Shown in pieces: positions 6,469 to 60,275 of a stretch of DNA of 64,000 bases (its first letter is position 1; every line of letters begins with the position of its first letter). The stretch is from Candidatus Babeliales bacterium (GTDB lineage Bacteria; Babelota; Babeliae; Babelales; JBFXEV01), in contig JBFXEV010000001.1 in NCBI GenBank assembly GCA_050179755.1, positions 1,061,940-1,125,939 of the forward strand, written 5' to 3'. The notes below the pieces were generated by a model, which did no database searches, was not told where the DNA came from, and saw nothing but the letters and a program-made list of their open reading frames with translations. The position numbers and the translations under genes were made by a program.

Positions 6469-7080
6469 GTGAAAAGATATATTTTTTTAGGCAGCATTTT
6501 ATTGTTTCAAACAATGTTTCTGCATGGTGAGAGCTGCCTGGATCAGGGGTCTAGTACTTTTGAAAGAGAAGCATCATGTGGCAAATTTATTGATGAGAAA
6601 GTAACTATGGTGGAACGGAATCTAGAAGAATTAGTGGGTGATTGGCAAACATTTTTTCAAACACATGACTGGCGCTCATTGGTTGCTGGAAGAACCGGGC
6701 TAAATCTAGGATGTGGGCTTGTATATGAATTGCCAAACTTTTTGAAGTATCCAAATGAAGATCTGGCCATTGTTGATATGACCGGTATTTCTATTTCGGA
6801 ACCACATTATCATCCTAACATGACAGAAATTTACTTTATGGTAGAAGGGTCAGGATGTGTCTATGTTGAAGGGGAAAAATATTGGCTGCAGCAAGGTGAT
6901 ACACTGGTAATTGCACCAAATAAAGCGCATTTTACCGTTCCTGATAAACAATGTGTGCTTGGCTGTGTGTGCACGCCGCCGTTTCACCCAGATAATTATA
7001 TTCCGCTTATGCAAACCAATTCAGAAGTAGGCTTTGATTTTGAACAGTTTAAAAATTTGCAAGAAAATTGCCGCACATGA
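6469..7080 (+). CDS. Cupin domain protein with signal peptide
   Basis: Cupin motifs HYHPNMTEIYFMVEGSG and GDTLVIAPNKAH. GTG start. Confidence 0.55.
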   Translation: MKRYIFLGSILLFQTMFLHGESCLDQGSSTFEREASCGKFIDEKVTMVERNLEELVGDWQTFFQTHDWRSLVAGRTGLNLGCGLVYELPNFLKYPNEDLAIVDMTGISISEPHYHPNMTEIYFMVEGSGCVYVEGEKYWLQQGDTLVIAPNKAHFTVPDKQCVLGCVCTPPFHPDNYIPLMQTNSEVGFDFEQFKNLQENCRT

Positions 7081-24880: not shown

Positions 24881-24985
24881 ACCGCTCACCCTTCCCTCGA
24901 TACTAATCGCTGCGCGATTCACTCGGGATGAGCGGTTTATCGACTTGTCCTCCGTAGCTTTATGCGTAGGAGAAAAGGTCAAAGC
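24881..24985. repeat. GC-rich palindromic dispersed repeat copy
   Basis: ACCGCTCA (24881-24888) pairs with TGAGCGGT (24929-24936), with a nested AATCGC-tgc-GCGATT hairpin. Shares the CCGCTCATCC core with other copies. Confidence 0.5.
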
Positions 24986-35851: not shown

Positions 35852-37273
35852 TTAAGTCAATTTTTGGTCATTAAATTTACAACGCGCAGATTTAAAGCCC
35901 TCTTGATATTCAGGACGCTTGTTTTCTAAATACTTAAAGAGCATTACAGTTGCGCAGGTAGCTGCGCCAAATATGAGCGTGCCTTTACCGAAAAATGAAA
36001 AGCATTTCCAGGCGAAAATGGCCTTCTTTGGTGTTGGTATTTTGTGCATTTGGGGTGCATATTTAATCAGGTCTGCTGTGGCAAGCAAAACAACGCTCAG
36101 GCAAGTTGAACCTACATAAAATGATCCAGCTGCAGTATAAGCAAGCACATCTTGAACCTTTTCGCTGACAATTGCTTTTTTTATAGTGCCTGTTGCTCTC
36201 TGAAAGTGAGTAGGAGTTATTGCATTTTTTATTTTTGTTATTTCTTCTTTACTCAAACGATTGCAGCTTAAATCAATTTTAATATTTTCAATGTTAGAAA
36301 ACGTACCATTTTCAATTTTTTCAATTTCATTGCTATGTAGTATAAGACCAAAGCCTGCAGGCATCTTTTTGAAGTCAATTCTTCTCAAGTAACGCATTTT
36401 ATTATTTGCAAGATTAAGGCATTGTAAATTAGGAAAAATGGCAAGTAATTGTGGCAAGTTAACTCTCGTTAATTGATTATCATGCAAATCAAGAAGCGTT
36501 ACTTCTTGCGGATTAACAACGGATGTAACTTTTTGAATATCAAATAGGCTAGTAAGTCCTTTACCTGCAAGAATAAGTGCTTTATGTTGGCCCTTTAATG
36601 TTATATGCCAGTGATTTGGAAGTTTTACCGTGCAATTTGATGTAATATCATCAGTACCTATTATTTCTTGAGCAATTAACTTCTCAATTTGTTTACTATA
36701 TCGTGCAAATAATTCATAGGTACTCATATCTTCTTTAATATTTTCAACTAGCAAGTTGTAATAATTACAAAGGGCGTGCATGAGAGTTGGTTTTATGGCC
36801 AAATATTCTGCGGTGTGTAATAGAGTGCGCGCTGTCTCGGGGCTTTGTAAACTTATTTCTTTGGGGTTGTGCACGCACTCAAAAAGTACAGTAAGAGTAG
36901 GCGCTGTTAAATCAATTGCGGGATTATCGTAAATATCTTTTTGTGTGTTAGGTGTTGCAAATGAGAGTGCGCAATCACGGTGTGTTTTAAATTGCTTTTT
37001 TAGTATACTTTTGATGAATTCGCTTTTTTGCGCTAATTTTGGTTCAATTTCAATAATTTGGTTGTCTGCGCATTTGATTCGTATGTTTGGATTATCAAAT
37101 CCAAATGTGGTTGGAACAACGCGAGTACCTATTGCAAATGGATTTTTGCCCTGGCCATATTTTTTTTCAAATACGCGCTTCAAGGCAGTAAGATTTGGGT
37201 GTTGCTCCATAGCTTGTATAATGCCTGTACAAAGCAAAAGAGTACTTATAATGGCTCGTAATGTTTTTTTCAT
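35852..37273 (-). CDS. Eukaryote-like effector candidate: Skp1/BTB-POZ-like domain + leucine-rich repeats + C-terminal TM helices
   Basis: The ATG at 37273 has an AGGAG SD. IRIKCADNQIIEIEPKLAQKSEFIKSILKK and LLHTAEYLAIKPTLMHALC fit the Skp1/BTB pattern. LRRs include LDLHDNQLTRV and NLQCLNLANNKM. Two C-terminal hydrophobic helices. Confidence 0.6.
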   Translation of the reverse strand: MKKTLRAIISTLLLCTGIIQAMEQHPNLTALKRVFEKKYGQGKNPFAIGTRVVPTTFGFDNPNIRIKCADNQIIEIEPKLAQKSEFIKSILKKQFKTHRDCALSFATPNTQKDIYDNPAIDLTAPTLTVLFECVHNPKEISLQSPETARTLLHTAEYLAIKPTLMHALCNYYNLLVENIKEDMSTYELFARYSKQIEKLIAQEIIGTDDITSNCTVKLPNHWHITLKGQHKALILAGKGLTSLFDIQKVTSVVNPQEVTLLDLHDNQLTRVNLPQLLAIFPNLQCLNLANNKMRYLRRIDFKKMPAGFGLILHSNEIEKIENGTFSNIENIKIDLSCNRLSKEEITKIKNAITPTHFQRATGTIKKAIVSEKVQDVLAYTAAGSFYVGSTCLSVVLLATADLIKYAPQMHKIPTPKKAIFAWKCFSFFGKGTLIFGAATCATVMLFKYLENKRPEYQEGFKSARCKFNDQKLT

Positions 37274-37598
37274 AATACTCCTATATGGCTTCTGTAAAAC
37301 CAAATATTATATTTCTAATTGTATATTAAATTTAATATTTGTCAAGCGGATTTGGTGGGTTAATAGGCGCATTAATGCAGGCTTGACAAGCAGATTTTAA
37401 GCGCAGCGGCTTAAGTTGCTTTTTCTTATAGGTTGCCAGACCTGCTAGAGCAGTTTAAGAGCCTTTACAAAGGGCATTTTTTGGGCAATACTTAACTATA
37501 TTTATATCATATAAACCTGTTCCTTCTTTAATCTGAAAGCTGATCTTGGTATTGACCCAGGGGGCCTATGGCAGAGGAACTTTCAAAGGATACACACC

Positions 37599-37879: not shown

Positions 37880-38950
37880 ATGCAGATTGATTGGAGCAGC
37901 CTTCAGTCACGATATCAAGCTATTAATGAGCAATTGATGTCTGGCGATATTGATAACCGTAAGCGGTCTGAGCTTCAAAGTGAAGCAAAGCACCTCAAGA
38001 CGTTACTTGATGCACACACGCATATTCAAGAAGTTGAAAAACAACTTTCTGATGCCCGTGAGCAAGAAGCTCAAGCTGCTGATCCTGAGTATAAAGAGCT
38101 ATTTACCCAAGAAATTACCGAACTCTCTGATAAATTACAGGTGGCACAAGATGAATTAGAATATCTTATTGTGCCTCCTGATATTATGGATGAACGGTCT
38201 GTGTTTCTTGAAGTCCGTGCCGGCGCTGGAGGCAAAGAAGCCTCACTATTTGCCTCTGATTTGGTGCGTATGTATACCAACTATGCAATTGCCAAGGGTT
38301 GGCAAGTTGATCTTGCCGATATGAGCAACACAGAGCTTGGGGGCGTGCGAGAAGCAACGCTTCACATTCAAGGCAAAGGTGCGTATGCGCATTTAAAAAA
38401 AGAAGCTGGCGTGCATCGTGTGCAGCGTGTTCCTAAAACGGAAACGCAAGGTAGAGTGCATACGTCTACAGCAACTATCGCTGTAATGCCTGAAGCAAAA
38501 GAAGTAGATATTGATATTAATCCTGCGGATTTGCGCGTTGATACGTACCGGGCAAGTGGTGCAGGTGGTCAGCACGTAAATAAAACAGATTCTGCCATTC
38601 GTATAACACATATTCCTACGGGCGTAGTGGTTGCGTGCCAAGAAGAACGCTCACAACATAAAAATAGAGCTAAAGCTCTTAAAATGCTGCAGTCTCGGTT
38701 GCTCCAAGCTGAGCGTGAAAAACAAGAAGCTCTAGAGGCAAAGCAACGCAAAGACCAAGTAGGGTCTGCCATGCGTTCTGAAAAAGTGCGCACCTATAAC
38801 TATCCTCAAAATCGCGTGACCGATCATCAGGTTGAATTGACGCTTAATAAGCTTGATATGATCATGGAAGGTCAGCTTGATGAAATTGTTGCTGCACTTA
38901 TGCAGCATGAGCGAGAAGAGCGCAAAAGACTTGCTATTGCAAAGGTATAG
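37880..38950 (+). CDS. prfA: Peptide chain release factor 1
   Basis: [20 protein letters not shown] and an RVP.TE.QGR.HTS region of RF1 type. Confidence 0.95.
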
Positions 38951-39085
38951 TCCTCATCGCTCAGAGCGCTGTGCCCGCCGTAGCCAGCCAAGTTTGAAGA
39001 CCTGGATTGGCGTAGGCCGGGAGTGTTCTTCAAGCCTTCAGGCTATGACGGATGTATCGAGGGGTTGCAAAGGTTTAACTACCAA
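38951..39085. repeat. GC-rich block, probable dispersed-repeat copy
   Basis: CCGCCGTAGCC / GGCGTAGGCCGG motifs resemble those flanking tRNA-Phe. Composition contrasts with the surrounding AT-rich spacer. Confidence 0.35.
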
Positions 39086-39231
39086 TATCTCCTGCTGATG
39101 CAGGTTTATAAACCTGACAAATAAACTATCAATATATCTATAAATATCAATATATAGATCTAATCGATGTATCCAAAATGTTATATTTAAACCTGTAAAT
39201 AAAAGTTTTTATAAAAACTTATCAAAAACCC

Positions 39232-39261
39232 TTGCTTATCGAGCTTTCAATAAGTTATAGT
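39232..39261 (+). promoter_or_regulatory. Sigma70-like promoter TTGCTT-N18-TATAGT in front of the stem-module array
   Basis: Hexamers at 39232-39237 and 39256-39261. Confidence 0.4.
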
Positions 39262-39264
39262 ATA

Positions 39265-39615
39265 AGTAGGAAGTGGCTTGAAGAGTAGTAACTTGATACA
39301 AGTTATGAGATCTCCCAAAAGAGAGGCCTTAAAGTCCACTTCCTACTAAAATTGACATATAAGTTGGAGATATTTAAGGTGTTTTTAACTGAGGTTAAAA
39401 GGCGAGTGAGTAATCAGCACAGTAAATATCTCCTCTAAATTGGGAAACGTTAACAGGCGTTCTTATGCATTTATCTTTAAAAGGAGACAATGAGTAATGA
39501 ATCTTAAGTGACGTTTCCCTCTAAATTGGGAAACGTAACAGGCGTTCTTATGAATTTATCTTTAAAAGGAGACAATACGTAATGAATCTTAAGTGACGTT
39601 TCCCTTTATTTTTTT
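39265..39615 (+). ncRNA. Candidate structured RNA: array of four stem-closed modules (strand inferred)
   Basis: Perfect closing helices: 39265-39276/39336-39347 (12 bp), 39366-39376/39423-39433 (11 bp), 39442-39450/39511-39519 (9 bp), 39528-39536/39596-39604 (9 bp). A CTAAA(A)TTG linker separates modules. TTTATTTTTTT follows the last stem. Confidence 0.35.
39442..39613. repeat. 86-bp tandem duplication (modules 3 and 4)
   Basis: Two near-identical units. The second overlaps the last codons and stop of the NUDIX gene. Confidence 0.8.
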
Positions 39616-40131
39616 AAACATTCTAAGCACTGATTGTTCGCGAGTGGGAAGCTCGCTCATATCTAATTTTATCCAACGTAATTCTTTTGATTCATGATTT
39701 TGTATAACTTGCTCATCGCTGGTTACCTGCAATAAAAACCGTATATCATAATGATCATGCGCAGGTTCATGTGTGCGCTCAGGGATTTGATGGATATCAA
39801 TATCAAAAATTTCCAATGAAACCGGCTCAATGCCGCGTATGCCAGATTCTTCTTGCGCTTCTCTGAGTGCTACTTTGAGTACGTCAGTATCGCCATCACA
39901 ATGTCCGCCAAGTTGTAGCCACTTATCAAGTTTGGTGTGGTGCAAAAGCAAAGCATGCGTGTGAGCTTTATTGAGTATAAATGCAGAGCCTGTAATATGG
40001 CCTATTGCAAGCGTACGTTCAAAGCAATTAGCATATGTGTTGATAAACTTGATCGTACGTTCTTTATATTCAGTTTCTTCATGTGTGGGATGATATGCCG
40101 CAAGAAGTTTAAGTAGTTGATTTCTATGCAT
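39589..40131 (-). CDS. NUDIX hydrolase
   Basis: Nudix box GGHCDGDTDVLKVALREAQEESGI. The ATG at 40131 is preferred; the longest ORF uses a GTG at 40167. Confidence 0.75.
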   Translation of the reverse strand: MHRNQLLKLLAAYHPTHEETEYKERTIKFINTYANCFERTLAIGHITGSAFILNKAHTHALLLHHTKLDKWLQLGGHCDGDTDVLKVALREAQEESGIRGIEPVSLEIFDIDIHQIPERTHEPAHDHYDIRFLLQVTSDEQVIQNHESKELRWIKLDMSELPTREQSVLRMFKKIKGNVT

Positions 40132-40246
40132 GAAATGTTCCGTATAATGCTTGAAAAAAGAGCGCACCTTTTAAATTGTTGACTATTGAAACGGCACTGG
40201 CCTATGCTTTGTTATGTATAGTATAAGGCACAAAAAAGGGATATCA

Positions 40247-41815
40247 ATGCAAAAGAGCATAATACGTATTGTAGGAGTGTTAGTTGTTTTATTATCATTG
40301 CCAAAAGCGCAAGCAATGTTTGCACTTGATGATGCGTTGTATCAAGCAGCAGCACAAGGTGACGTTGCCAAGGTAAACGAGCGGATACAGGCTCATGTAA
40401 ACATAAACGAGGTAGGCGTTAACAACGGTGATACTGCACTTCATCTTGCGGTGCGTAATGGACATCTGGCCGTCGTAAATGCTCTTCTTGATGTTAACGT
40501 AGATGTTGCTAAAGAAAACCATAAACGCGAAACTCCTTTGAGCATTGCGCGTGATGCCTATATAAAAGCTGTGGAGGCTGGTGATTTAGATAAGCAACAA
40601 ATCTATCTTGATATACTTAATGCGTTTTTAGGTAATAATACTGATACTGATCGAGATTTATTGCGTCACATAGTTCTTGAAAATATTCCAGGCATAAAAA
40701 GAGCGCTTAATCAGGGTGCAAATGCAAATTCACGTGGCAGAGGTCTGCATGGCATGATGCCTGTTCATTATGTTATTGCTCATTATCCCGTTGATCGCGT
40801 TTTGCCCATGGTAAAACTATTGCTTGAAAAAAATGCAGATAAAAATCAGCAAGATGATGATGGCATGACGCCACTTGCTCATGCTACTGTGCGGCGATTA
40901 CAGGAAGTTGTAGAATACTTGTTAGCGCAAAAAGTAAATGTTGATCAAGCTGATAAAACAGGTCAAACGCCCTTACATCATTATGCAGCTCGTGGTGATC
41001 TTGAAGGAGTTAATGCTTTGCTGAGTGCGCATGCCAATCCAAATGCTGTAGATCAATCCAACCAAACGCCGCTCTTTTTTGCTGCAATGCGTGGATATGA
41101 TGCGGTAGTTGCTGCATTGCTTGCGGCTCAAGCCGATCCCAATGCACAAGCGTCGGCTTATGCCTATACACAAGATAAAAAAGGTTTGACGGTGGTACAA
41201 GTGGCACAAAATTCAAATATCGTTCGTATGCTTGTGGAAAAGGGCGCAAATCCGCATCAGTTTATGAATCCTACTACCCATGAAACATTATTGCATTATG
41301 CAGTAAAAACAGGCGATGCGCAGCTCGTACGCTTATTACTTGAGAAAAATGTTGATGTAAATGCGCCAGATCACGTTCTGCGAACGCCCTTGCATTTTAT
41401 AGTACAGTATGCGAATGTTGCAACTAAGCCAATCGTTTCACTTTTGCTTGCAAAAGGCGCAAATCCTACATTAGAAAATCTCACTGGTGAAACTCCGATT
41501 GATTTTGCACGGCGTGGGCAATTGGCGCTTGCAGGCCGTATACTATCCCGTGGTGAGTTAGAGCATGAAGATTACGATGCGCTTATTGATGAGCTCACTC
41601 ATGCAAGTGCGCCTTTTGTTCAAACGGTAAAGACAACAAAACCGTTGCCAGAAAAGCCTGTAAAACCATTATCAACAAAACCGTTGCCCACTAAACCAAC
41701 GCAATTGCCGGCAAGTACATGCCCAATAAAGCCAGCATCGCCTCCTGAGCTCCAAGACGTATTAGAAGATTTAGTACGTGCGCTCGAAAAATTGGAAGAT
41801 CAAATACGTGCGTAA
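40247..41815 (+). CDS. Ankyrin-repeat protein with signal peptide and Pro-rich C-terminus
   Basis: Many ANK units (GDTALHLAVRNGH, GQTPLHHYAARGD, NQTPLFFAAMRGY). C-terminal KPLPEKPVKPLSTKPLPTKP. The longest ORF starts at 40214. Confidence 0.85.
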   Translation: MQKSIIRIVGVLVVLLSLPKAQAMFALDDALYQAAAQGDVAKVNERIQAHVNINEVGVNNGDTALHLAVRNGHLAVVNALLDVNVDVAKENHKRETPLSIARDAYIKAVEAGDLDKQQIYLDILNAFLGNNTDTDRDLLRHIVLENIPGIKRALNQGANANSRGRGLHGMMPVHYVIAHYPVDRVLPMVKLLLEKNADKNQQDDDGMTPLAHATVRRLQEVVEYLLAQKVNVDQADKTGQTPLHHYAARGDLEGVNALLSAHANPNAVDQSNQTPLFFAAMRGYDAVVAALLAAQADPNAQASAYAYTQDKKGLTVVQVAQNSNIVRMLVEKGANPHQFMNPTTHETLLHYAVKTGDAQLVRLLLEKNVDVNAPDHVLRTPLHFIVQYANVATKPIVSLLLAKGANPTLENLTGETPIDFARRGQLALAGRILSRGELEHEDYDALIDELTHASAPFVQTVKTTKPLPEKPVKPLSTKPLPTKPTQLPASTCPIKPASPPELQDVLEDLVRALEKLEDQIRA

Positions 41816-60200: not shown

Positions 60201-60275
60201 GCCGAGGTAGCTCAGTGGTAGAGCGTAAGCCTGAAGAGCTTAGCGTCGGGGGTTCAATTCCCTCTCTCGGCACCA
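60201..60275 (+). tRNA. tRNA-Phe (anticodon GAA), CCA encoded
   Basis: Hand-folded cloverleaf. Acceptor GCCGAGG/TCTCGGC, D arm GCTC..GAGC, anticodon stem TAAGC/GCTTA with loop CTGAAGA, T arm GGGGG-TTCAATT-CCCTC, then ACCA. Confidence 0.9.

Follow-up and report, generated by a model that had tools for sequence, protein, structure and literature searches.

Introduction

NrsZ is a small RNA composed of repeated modules, with a stem-loop number that ranges from 1 to 6 among Pseudomonas (PMC4253122). Each module is a simple stem-loop of ~40-60 nt with the same seed, ACAGGCAG, exposed in its loop, and the transcript is processed into these modules (PMC4253122). Here, we describe a locus of similarly modular build in the genome of a Candidatus Babeliales bacterium (contig JBFXEV010000001.1). 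The window, that is, the whole stretch of DNA analyzed, comprises 64,000 nucleotides. Within it, a spacer of 638 bp separates prfA (37880-38950, + strand) from a NUDIX hydrolase gene (39589-40131, - strand). As judged from sequence, this spacer very probably holds a real, structured, non-coding RNA gene of ~350 nt on the + strand that extends from ~39265 to ~39615.

Members of the Dependentiae (TM6) live inside protist cells and either have not been cultured or are difficult to culture. In a search of the literature, no paper dealt with non-coding RNAs of this group. The RNA described here is previously undescribed and unclassified, and so far it has been found in four related Babeliales genomes.

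Stem-closed units in the prfA-NUDIX spacer

A sequence-only reading of the window had described four consecutive units in the spacer, each closed by a perfect helix of different sequence. The arms of these helices were located, with lengths of 9-12 bp:

Unit 1 closing helix: 39265-39276 / 39336-39347, 12 bp, perfect
Unit 2 closing helix: 39366-39376 / 39423-39433, 11 bp
Unit 3 closing helix: 39442-39450 / 39511-39519, 9 bp perfect, 11-12 bp with G.U pairs
Unit 4 closing helix: 39528-39536 / 39596-39604, 9 bp perfect, 11-12 bp with G.U pairs

The four-helix pattern is beyond chance. Four perfect inverted repeats (at least 9 bp, spacer of 30-75 nt) lie within 359 nt. When these 359 nt were shuffled 2000 times with preservation of dinucleotides, 91% of the shuffles had zero repeats, 9% had one, 0.3% had two, and three or more were never observed. 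The remaining 63.6 kb of the window has 18 such repeats, or ~0.1 per 359 nt. The z-score of the minimum free energy (MFE) is -5.6 for the + strand and -5.8 for the - strand. Units 3 and 4 are the tandem duplication that had been proposed, with a period of 85 bp rather than 86 (Tandem Repeats Finder: 2.0 copies, 95% matches, 39432-39605). Because unit 4 is a recent duplicate of unit 3, only three of the helices are independent, and the identity of the last two is not covariation.

The smaller features that had been read from the sequence are likewise all there. These are the interior strings shared between units, TTAAAAGG(C/A)GA...TGAGTAAT; the CTAAA(A)TTG linkers between units; the 7-bp inner hairpins of units 1 and 2; a promoter-like TTGCTT-N18-TATAGT site just upstream, which ends 3 nt before unit 1; a U-run, TTTATTTTTTT, after the last helix at 39605-39615; and the overlap with the NUDIX gene, whose stop and last five codons fall inside unit 4. 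The proposal that the units are diverged copies kept by compensatory change needs revision. The helices are compensated between species, but the units are not copies of one module.

Domain anatomy of the RNA

Four loci from four Babeliales (Dependentiae) species were compared: the locus in the window and three relatives, whose contigs were reached via close NUDIX and RF1 homologues of the window proteins:

L002/L009: OY970310.1, NUDIX identity 73%, RF1 identity 89%
L005: GCA_964479415.1, NUDIX identity 75%, RF1 identity 90%
L099: ERZ25039473 contig_168409, RF1 identity 86%

The RNA is predicted to be a chain of independently folding domains, each closed by its own 5' and 3' ends. There are three kinds of unit, namely the u1 type, a second type of three-way junction, and a terminator-type hairpin (T). 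In the window, the parts are arranged as follows:

39265-39347, + strand: u1, a three-way junction; the transcript probably has its 5' end here
39348-39365, + strand: linker, AAAAUUGACAUAUAAGUU, A/U-rich and single-stranded, ending in the junction motif AAGUU|GG
39366-39433, + strand: u2, the second three-way-junction type
39434-39441, + strand: linker, UCUAAAUU
39442-39519, + strand: T, a long irregular hairpin of terminator type with P1 GGGAAACGUUA/UGACGUUUCCC; homologues in L002 and L099
39520-39527, + strand: linker, a duplicated copy of UCUAAAUU
39528-39604, + strand: T', the second copy of T from the 85-bp tandem duplication (95% identity), in this genome only
39605-39615, + strand: U-run, UUUAUUUUUUU, after the closing helix of T'; likely an intrinsic terminator tail

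The closing helix of u1 is long and irregular (AGUAGGAAGUGG/CCACUUCCUACU plus an extension). Its outer part, AGUAGGAAGUG / C(A/U)(C/G)CUUCCUA, is the sole helix of constant sequence in the RNA. The P2 (GUAACUUG/CAAGUUAU) and P3 (UCUC/GAGA) helices of u1 are short hairpins whose loops are not conserved; in L099, they carry the GNRA loops GAAA and GCAA.

The u2 domain is composed of an 11-bp P1, a P1b of GUGU/GCAC, a P2 of UUUUAAC/GUUAAAA, and a P3 of UGA-GUAA-UCA. It is paralogous to u3/u4, the third and fourth units of L002 and L005, and to m2 of L099, and not to units 3 and 4 of the window. Both T and T' carry the u2-like string TTAAAAGGAGA...GAGTAAT, without the P3 helix. Modules of this second type are 68-78 nt long, with a P1 of 10-11 bp, a P1b of the GUGU/GCAC type, a P2 of 7-8 bp, and a P3 of 3-4 bp. 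In the eight copies, the P2 loops are UGAG, UUCG, GAAA, GCAA, or larger. Across all modules and species, the loops include UGAG, UUCG, GAAA, GCAA, CUUUAAAA, and others, and no loop sequence is conserved.

The order and number of domains differ between species:

Window: u1-u2-T-T'
L002: u1-u2-u3-u4-T
L005: u1-u2-u3-u4, without T, ending in u4 and a U-run
L099: u1-m2-T

The second module type is thus present once in the window, three times in L002, three times in L005, and once in L099. Domains are always preceded by AA(A/G)UU and start with GG(R) or GAG.

Termination is predicted at T/T', where a G+C-rich helix, GGGAAACGU...ACGUUUCCC, is followed by UUUAUUUUUUU as in an intrinsic terminator. 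A G+C-rich closing helix followed by a U-run is likewise found in L002 and L099 (at T) and in L005 (at u4), and in all three CCC precedes the T-run. The terminator scan omitted T' with its U-run because the enclosed 'loop' exceeds 8 nt.

The T hairpin has two further properties. Its apical part (39470-39507, TTTAAAAGGAGACAATGAGTAATGAA) resembles a ribosome-binding site with start codons, and these 38 nt match a gene start in Acinetobacter phage Acibel004 at 92%. The string AAGGAG-N10-AUGAAUCUUAA is common to T of the window and L099, and the frames that follow differ (4 vs 11 codons). In addition, the NUDIX gene now takes its last five codons (KGNVT) and its stop (39589-39604) from the duplication behind T', in whose 3' arm they lie. 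The overlap between RNA and NUDIX gene is specific to the window genome. Because L002 and L099 have none, the duplication remodelled the NUDIX C-terminus in this genome.

Conservation, pairing and strand

Between species, u1 and u2 are 82-83% identical. The coding sequence of prfA is similar in this respect (80-84%), whereas that of NUDIX (71%) and the third codon positions of prfA (56%) are well below, which points to selection on the locus. The alignments of u1 and of the modules (A3, A8, and A9) were made by hand, padded with N, and fitted to the structure, so the pairing counts that follow lean towards structure. They replaced a MAFFT alignment of the paralogous modules (A2), in which the P1 arms were out of register. 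In the four-species alignment of u1 (A8), 94% of the cells are paired and 9 pairs are doubly changed. None of 500 shuffles paired as well, and slid registers pair at 36-48%. Among the compensatory changes are a replacement of AAG/CUU by UGG/CCA, the whole of P2, and a C-G pair that became G-C in P3. For the eight copies of the second module type, 97% of the cells are paired, and 9 pairs and 25 cells are doubly changed. Between the u3/u4 modules of L002 and L005, 7 of 7 substitutions lie in loops or preserve or improve pairing.

A covariance model built from u1 and u2 (R2) was used to search ~750 kb, including the NUDIX-flanking loci of other Babeliales genomes. Through local matches to its u2 part, it recovered u3 and u4 of L002 and L005 (E=7e-6 and 1e-3), which independently supports the predicted homology of the modules. 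No copy outside the four known species turned up in this search.

The wobble pairs assign the RNA to the + strand. The three pair tables contain ~57 G.U cells vs 3 A.C cells (hand tally), and on the - strand the G.U wobbles would be mismatches. The MFE is -103.6 kcal/mol for the + strand vs -91.8 for the - strand, so the + strand is better by 12 kcal/mol. Four features remain constant. Every domain closes on itself, and the junction strands (GUG, AGUAAU, CAGC), A/U-rich linkers, and closing helix of u1 are retained. The suggestion of a single structured RNA running from promoter to U-run on the + strand is therefore supported by predicted signals conserved in four species, by compensatory and wobble changes, and by the strand-specific G.U excess.

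Coding of a small protein was considered and rejected. A 19-codon GUG-initiated frame in u2 is also open in L002, and a 2-nt indel in a loop breaks it in L005. The two mini-ORFs (open reading frames) reported in units 3 and 4, MSNES* and MNLK*, read as described, but neither is conserved. Within the window itself, the duplicate has lost MSNES*; MNLK* has no counterpart in L002, and in L099 it is a frame of 11 codons.

Promoter and upstream sites

The RNA appears to have its own promoter, which is preceded by three candidate regulatory sites:

39226-39261, + strand: promoter, composed of an A-tract with CCC, a -35 element TTGCTT (39232-39237), an 18-nt spacer, and a -10 element TATAGT (39256-39261)
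39101-39116, unstranded: CAGGTTTATAAACCTG, a perfect 16-bp palindrome ~165 nt 5' of the RNA start
39186-39195, unstranded: TTTAAACCTG, a conserved half-site with the AAACCTG half of that palindrome, ~75 nt 5' of the start; TTTnAACCyG in 4 of 4 species
39203-39220, unstranded: AAGTTTTTATAAAAACTT, a perfect 18-bp AT-rich palindrome just 5' of the -35 element, with a conserved T5-6 N2-3 A5-6 pattern

The promoter call is a consensus match combined with conservation. The sigma-70-like TTGCTa-N18-TATAGT is almost unchanged in all four species and places the predicted RNA start at AGUAGGAAGUG. In the four-species alignment, the promoter string GAAAAACCCTTGCT..GCTT.CAAT..GTTATAGTATAAGTAGG is nearly invariant, as is the stretch GAAAAACCCTTGCT-N-TATAGTATAAGTAGGAAGTG. 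The 16-bp palindrome has a single exact copy in the window and is conserved in the four species as (T/A)(G/A)CAGGTTTryAAnCC. The palindromes and the half-site are candidate operator sites and suggest that transcription is regulated. The consensus of the GacA/UvrY-type box is TGTAAG-N6-CTTACA, and the upstream palindromes do not match it.

Tests against known RNA families

The locus had not been recognized as a member of any known RNA family, and it has no Rfam match at the gathering threshold. In the whole window, the sole match to Rfam 15 at gathering score is a tRNA at 60201. When E-values of up to 10 were admitted, matches to the locus and to its homologue in L002 were at chance level only, all far below gathering. 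These were Tetrahymena and trypanosome snoRNAs, MIR319, mt-tmRNA (17.9 bits), T-box (13.8), and tmRNA (10.2). ARAGORN found no tmRNA.

Several candidates were rejected. RNase P, tmRNA, 6S, and SRP (signal recognition particle) RNA have no Rfam or ARAGORN support and are incompatible with the multi-domain fold. Resemblance to the 23S GTPase-centre RNA, the T-box, and the glycine riboswitch was dropped, as no model score stood behind any of them. A ToxI-like RNA of a type III toxin-antitoxin system would call for a same-strand downstream toxin gene and identical short repeat units, and the locus has neither.

Distribution

The element adjoins prfA in the window and in L099. In L002 and L005, ankyrin genes lie between the element and prfA, and in L005 a gene of 300 aa also separates the element from the NUDIX gene. 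The gene that follows is convergent in each of the four species. Because the neighbours differ, it is the promoter, and not a flanking gene, that accompanies the element.

Other copies of the element were sought. Scans with nhmmer and two covariance models covered 80 genome loci that surround NUDIX homologues and gave matches only in the species already known. Two metagenome pattern scans gave none and then 4 chance matches, scans of viral contigs and of a plasmid collection gave nothing, and a phage collection gave only the 38-nt match that resembles a ribosome-binding site. A dispersed repeat family had also been considered, and neither the 64-kb window nor ~690 kb of related loci yielded a further copy beyond the orthologues in searches with blastn and two covariance models. 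A weak R2 match in L020 (E=0.84, syntenic position) was rejected as an unrelated GC-rich inverted-repeat element.

The slot between prfA and NUDIX is variable in its own right. In L093, it holds a RelB-like/ParE toxin-antitoxin pair (6537-7024); in L002 (6433-6645), an orphan RelB-like gene and an ankyrin gene; and in L005 (4530-7458), an ankyrin gene and the 300-aa gene, whose function is unassigned. A RelB/ParE remnant in the window spacer was rejected, as tblastn of the L093 proteins gave nothing.

A proposed protein-binding scaffold

The RNA would most likely serve as a stable, multivalent, protein-binding scaffold or decoy, in which each stem-closed junction is a binding unit. Cleavage at the conserved AARUU|GG linkers may also release individual modules with protected ends. 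RNase E prefers RN|WUU, which the linkers fit. Protein binding is suggested because the helices vary and the loops, namely those of P2 and P3 in u1 and of P2 in the second module type, swap stable tetraloops (GAAA, GCAA, GUAA, UUCG), the junctions, linkers, and u1 helix are constant, and the copy number varies. Constant junctions, interchangeable tetraloops, and a variable module number are typical of stable RNAs that proteins recognize by shape and junction nucleotides, in contrast to sRNAs (small RNAs) with an exposed, conserved seed. The closing helix of each module buries both of its ends, and the module number is 1-3, which also favors protein binding over seed pairing. For the whole statement, the RNA gene together with the scaffold or decoy mechanism, we estimate a probability of roughly 0.4.

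Several points weigh against this reading. The element is found in only four species of one narrow clade (prfA at least 86% identical), so the covariation statistics are weak, and the alignments of u1 and the modules were fitted to the structure by hand. Both the predicted 5' end and the predicted 3' end rest on consensus signals. There is no protein gene consistently adjacent at the four loci. No RNA is found in the prfA/NUDIX region examined of L093 (prfA/RF1 85%), where RelB/ParE occupies the slot instead, or of L100 (76%). Multivalency is not essential, because the window species has a single module of the second type. Lastly, the invariant u1 helix, AGGAAGUG/CACUUCCU, resembles a Shine-Dalgarno/anti-Shine-Dalgarno pair and could equally mean a base-pairing role.

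Such a role is the main rival of the protein scaffold. The RNA would be an NrsZ-like precursor of base-pairing sRNAs, cut at its linkers, whose modules or CUUCCU/CUCC strands would pair with Shine-Dalgarno regions. We regard this as possible, if unlikely. As in NrsZ (PMC4253122), the build is modular, with repeated modules on one predicted transcript and a copy number that differs by species, and the AARUU|GG linkers are conserved. The only invariant helix is the Shine-Dalgarno-like one in u1, and every P1 has a GGAG-like 5' arm and a CUCC-like 3' arm. However, the CUCC-like strands are fully paired in all modules, and there is no identical exposed seed per module. The NrsZ seed is identical in the loops, whereas here the loops differ, none is conserved, and they are exchanged among GNRA and UUCG tetraloops.

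Going further than the scaffold, the RNA could open up a new class of bacterial RNAs, a Dependentiae-specific 'polycistronic' array of end-protected three-way-junction particles that are cleaved at the linkers into separate small ribonucleoproteins or aptamers. This is doubtful. If so, one possibility is titration of a protein related to translation or RNA decay via the Shine-Dalgarno-like helices, and another is that the particles act as RNA effectors inside the protist that hosts these obligately intracellular bacteria.

Somewhat less probable still is a trans-acting or orphan ligand-sensing RNA, with the junctions as aptamers for a metabolite or ion. Conserved junction strands with varying, tetraloop-capped helices are typical of aptamers, and the tandem arrangement would suit them. 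A riboswitch or leader would precede a gene, yet none of the four species has a same-strand gene downstream, the next one being convergent. Nor is there a riboswitch family match at E up to 10, and the junction sequences of u2 and u3/u4 differ.

The array lies between convergent genes, and it could be no RNA gene but a cis-acting end-of-gene structure, i.e., a terminator, insulator, or stabilizer for the prfA and NUDIX transcripts. The terminator-like T/T' with its U-run, the A-run on the opposite side, and the similar fold z-scores of both strands are in line with this. Against it, a dedicated upstream promoter is conserved nearly base for base in four species, and array and promoter are retained in L002 and L005 despite the intervening ankyrin genes and, in L005, the extra gene before NUDIX. 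Minus-strand folds would be much poorer given 57 G.U vs 3 A.C, and three-way junctions exceed what a terminator needs. We judge this structure quite improbable.

A sponge for CsrA of the CsrB/RsmZ type is more improbable again. It would account for an independent multi-hairpin RNA with palindromes 5' of the promoter and with several GGA and AAGGAG strings. However, the RNA has 6 GGA vs 4.8 expected (p=0.33); all six lie in predicted helices and none in a loop or linker, and no CsrB, RsmY, RsmZ, or RsmX model matches.

Least probable of all are DNA-level repeats of the REP (repetitive extragenic palindrome), MITE (miniature inverted-repeat transposable element), or attC type that serve a recombinase or transposase, since the stem-closed tandem units of 70-85 bp, the one recent duplication, and the variable slot, which elsewhere holds toxin-antitoxin and ankyrin genes, are outweighed by an orthologous, conserved locus with a promoter and strand-specific wobble pairs, by the lack of a second copy in the window or the related loci besides orthologues, by the absence of target-site duplications and of a nearby transposase or integrase, and by a plasmid collection without a match and a phage collection with the 38-nt match only.

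Neighbouring genes and other elements

On either side of the locus are genes for eukaryote-like repeat proteins, a 483-aa leucine-rich-repeat protein (35852-37303) and a 533-aa ankyrin-repeat protein (40214-41815). Several further ankyrin genes are found on the same contig, a content typical of Dependentiae that associate with protists.

Immediately 3' of the prfA stop codon, 145 nt of the window (38951-39095) have 54% G+C vs ~40% for the genome and are strongly self-complementary (MFE of -49 kcal/mol for 150 nt). Neither blastn nor tblastx found a homologue in the compared loci, and GAGTGTTCTTC(A/G)AGCC recurs after prfA in L099 (by eye). This segment could be what is left of a palindromic, GC-rich element, or it could be a further structured RNA. 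In L100 (2840-3120), GC-rich repeated palindromic sequence follows prfA, of which 42 nt match window positions 24897-24938 at 81% identity; small GC-rich repeats of this kind may form a family across Babeliales genomes. The element in L020 (10590-10960), which lies downstream of NUDIX in another Dependentiae metagenome-assembled genome, has GC-rich inverted arms of ~125 nt that are 76% identical and an AT-rich core. It is MITE-like, unrelated to the RNA, and the source of the weak covariance-model match.

Significance

With a conserved promoter, candidate operators, and a constrained fold, the locus would be an entry point to RNA-based regulation in Dependentiae. Two self-closing junction types, a variable copy number, and a fresh duplication catch the gain and loss of modules in a structured RNA in progress. 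If the modules bind a protein or ligand, the repeats would be used in a way unlike the patterns of CsrB and NrsZ. The immediate impact is limited by the narrow distribution (four species, one clade).

Comparison with known systems

REP elements, bacterial interspersed mosaic elements (BIME), and MITEs are likewise short units bounded by inverted repeats and clustered between convergent genes. In contrast, the Babeliales RNA is a single orthologous locus with a conserved promoter and G.U wobble on one strand.

Tandem riboswitch aptamers, such as those of the glycine riboswitch, share with the Babeliales RNA three-way-junction domains in tandem, conserved cores, and varying helices. The Babeliales RNA differs in being free-standing, with a predicted promoter and terminator of its own, without a downstream gene or expression platform, and without a match to any riboswitch family.

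CsrB, RsmZ, and RsmY are also independent transcripts of several hundred nucleotides with a variable number of repeated units, and multivalent protein binding is what we propose here. Unlike them, the Babeliales RNA has no GGA in loops or single strands, is built of three-way junctions and not of short hairpins, and has no Rfam match.

NrsZ is alike in its single transcript, its repeated structured modules with short spacers and species-variable number, its intergenic position, and its own promoter, whose regulation is putative in the Babeliales RNA. Processing has been shown for NrsZ and is only proposed for the Babeliales RNA. The NrsZ promoter is RpoN-dependent, whereas that of the Babeliales RNA is sigma-70-like, and the two RNAs share no sequence similarity. 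The modules of the Babeliales RNA are three-way junctions of 68-83 nt with closing helices of 9-13 bp and loops that are not conserved, and they come in two types, with a terminator hairpin in addition.

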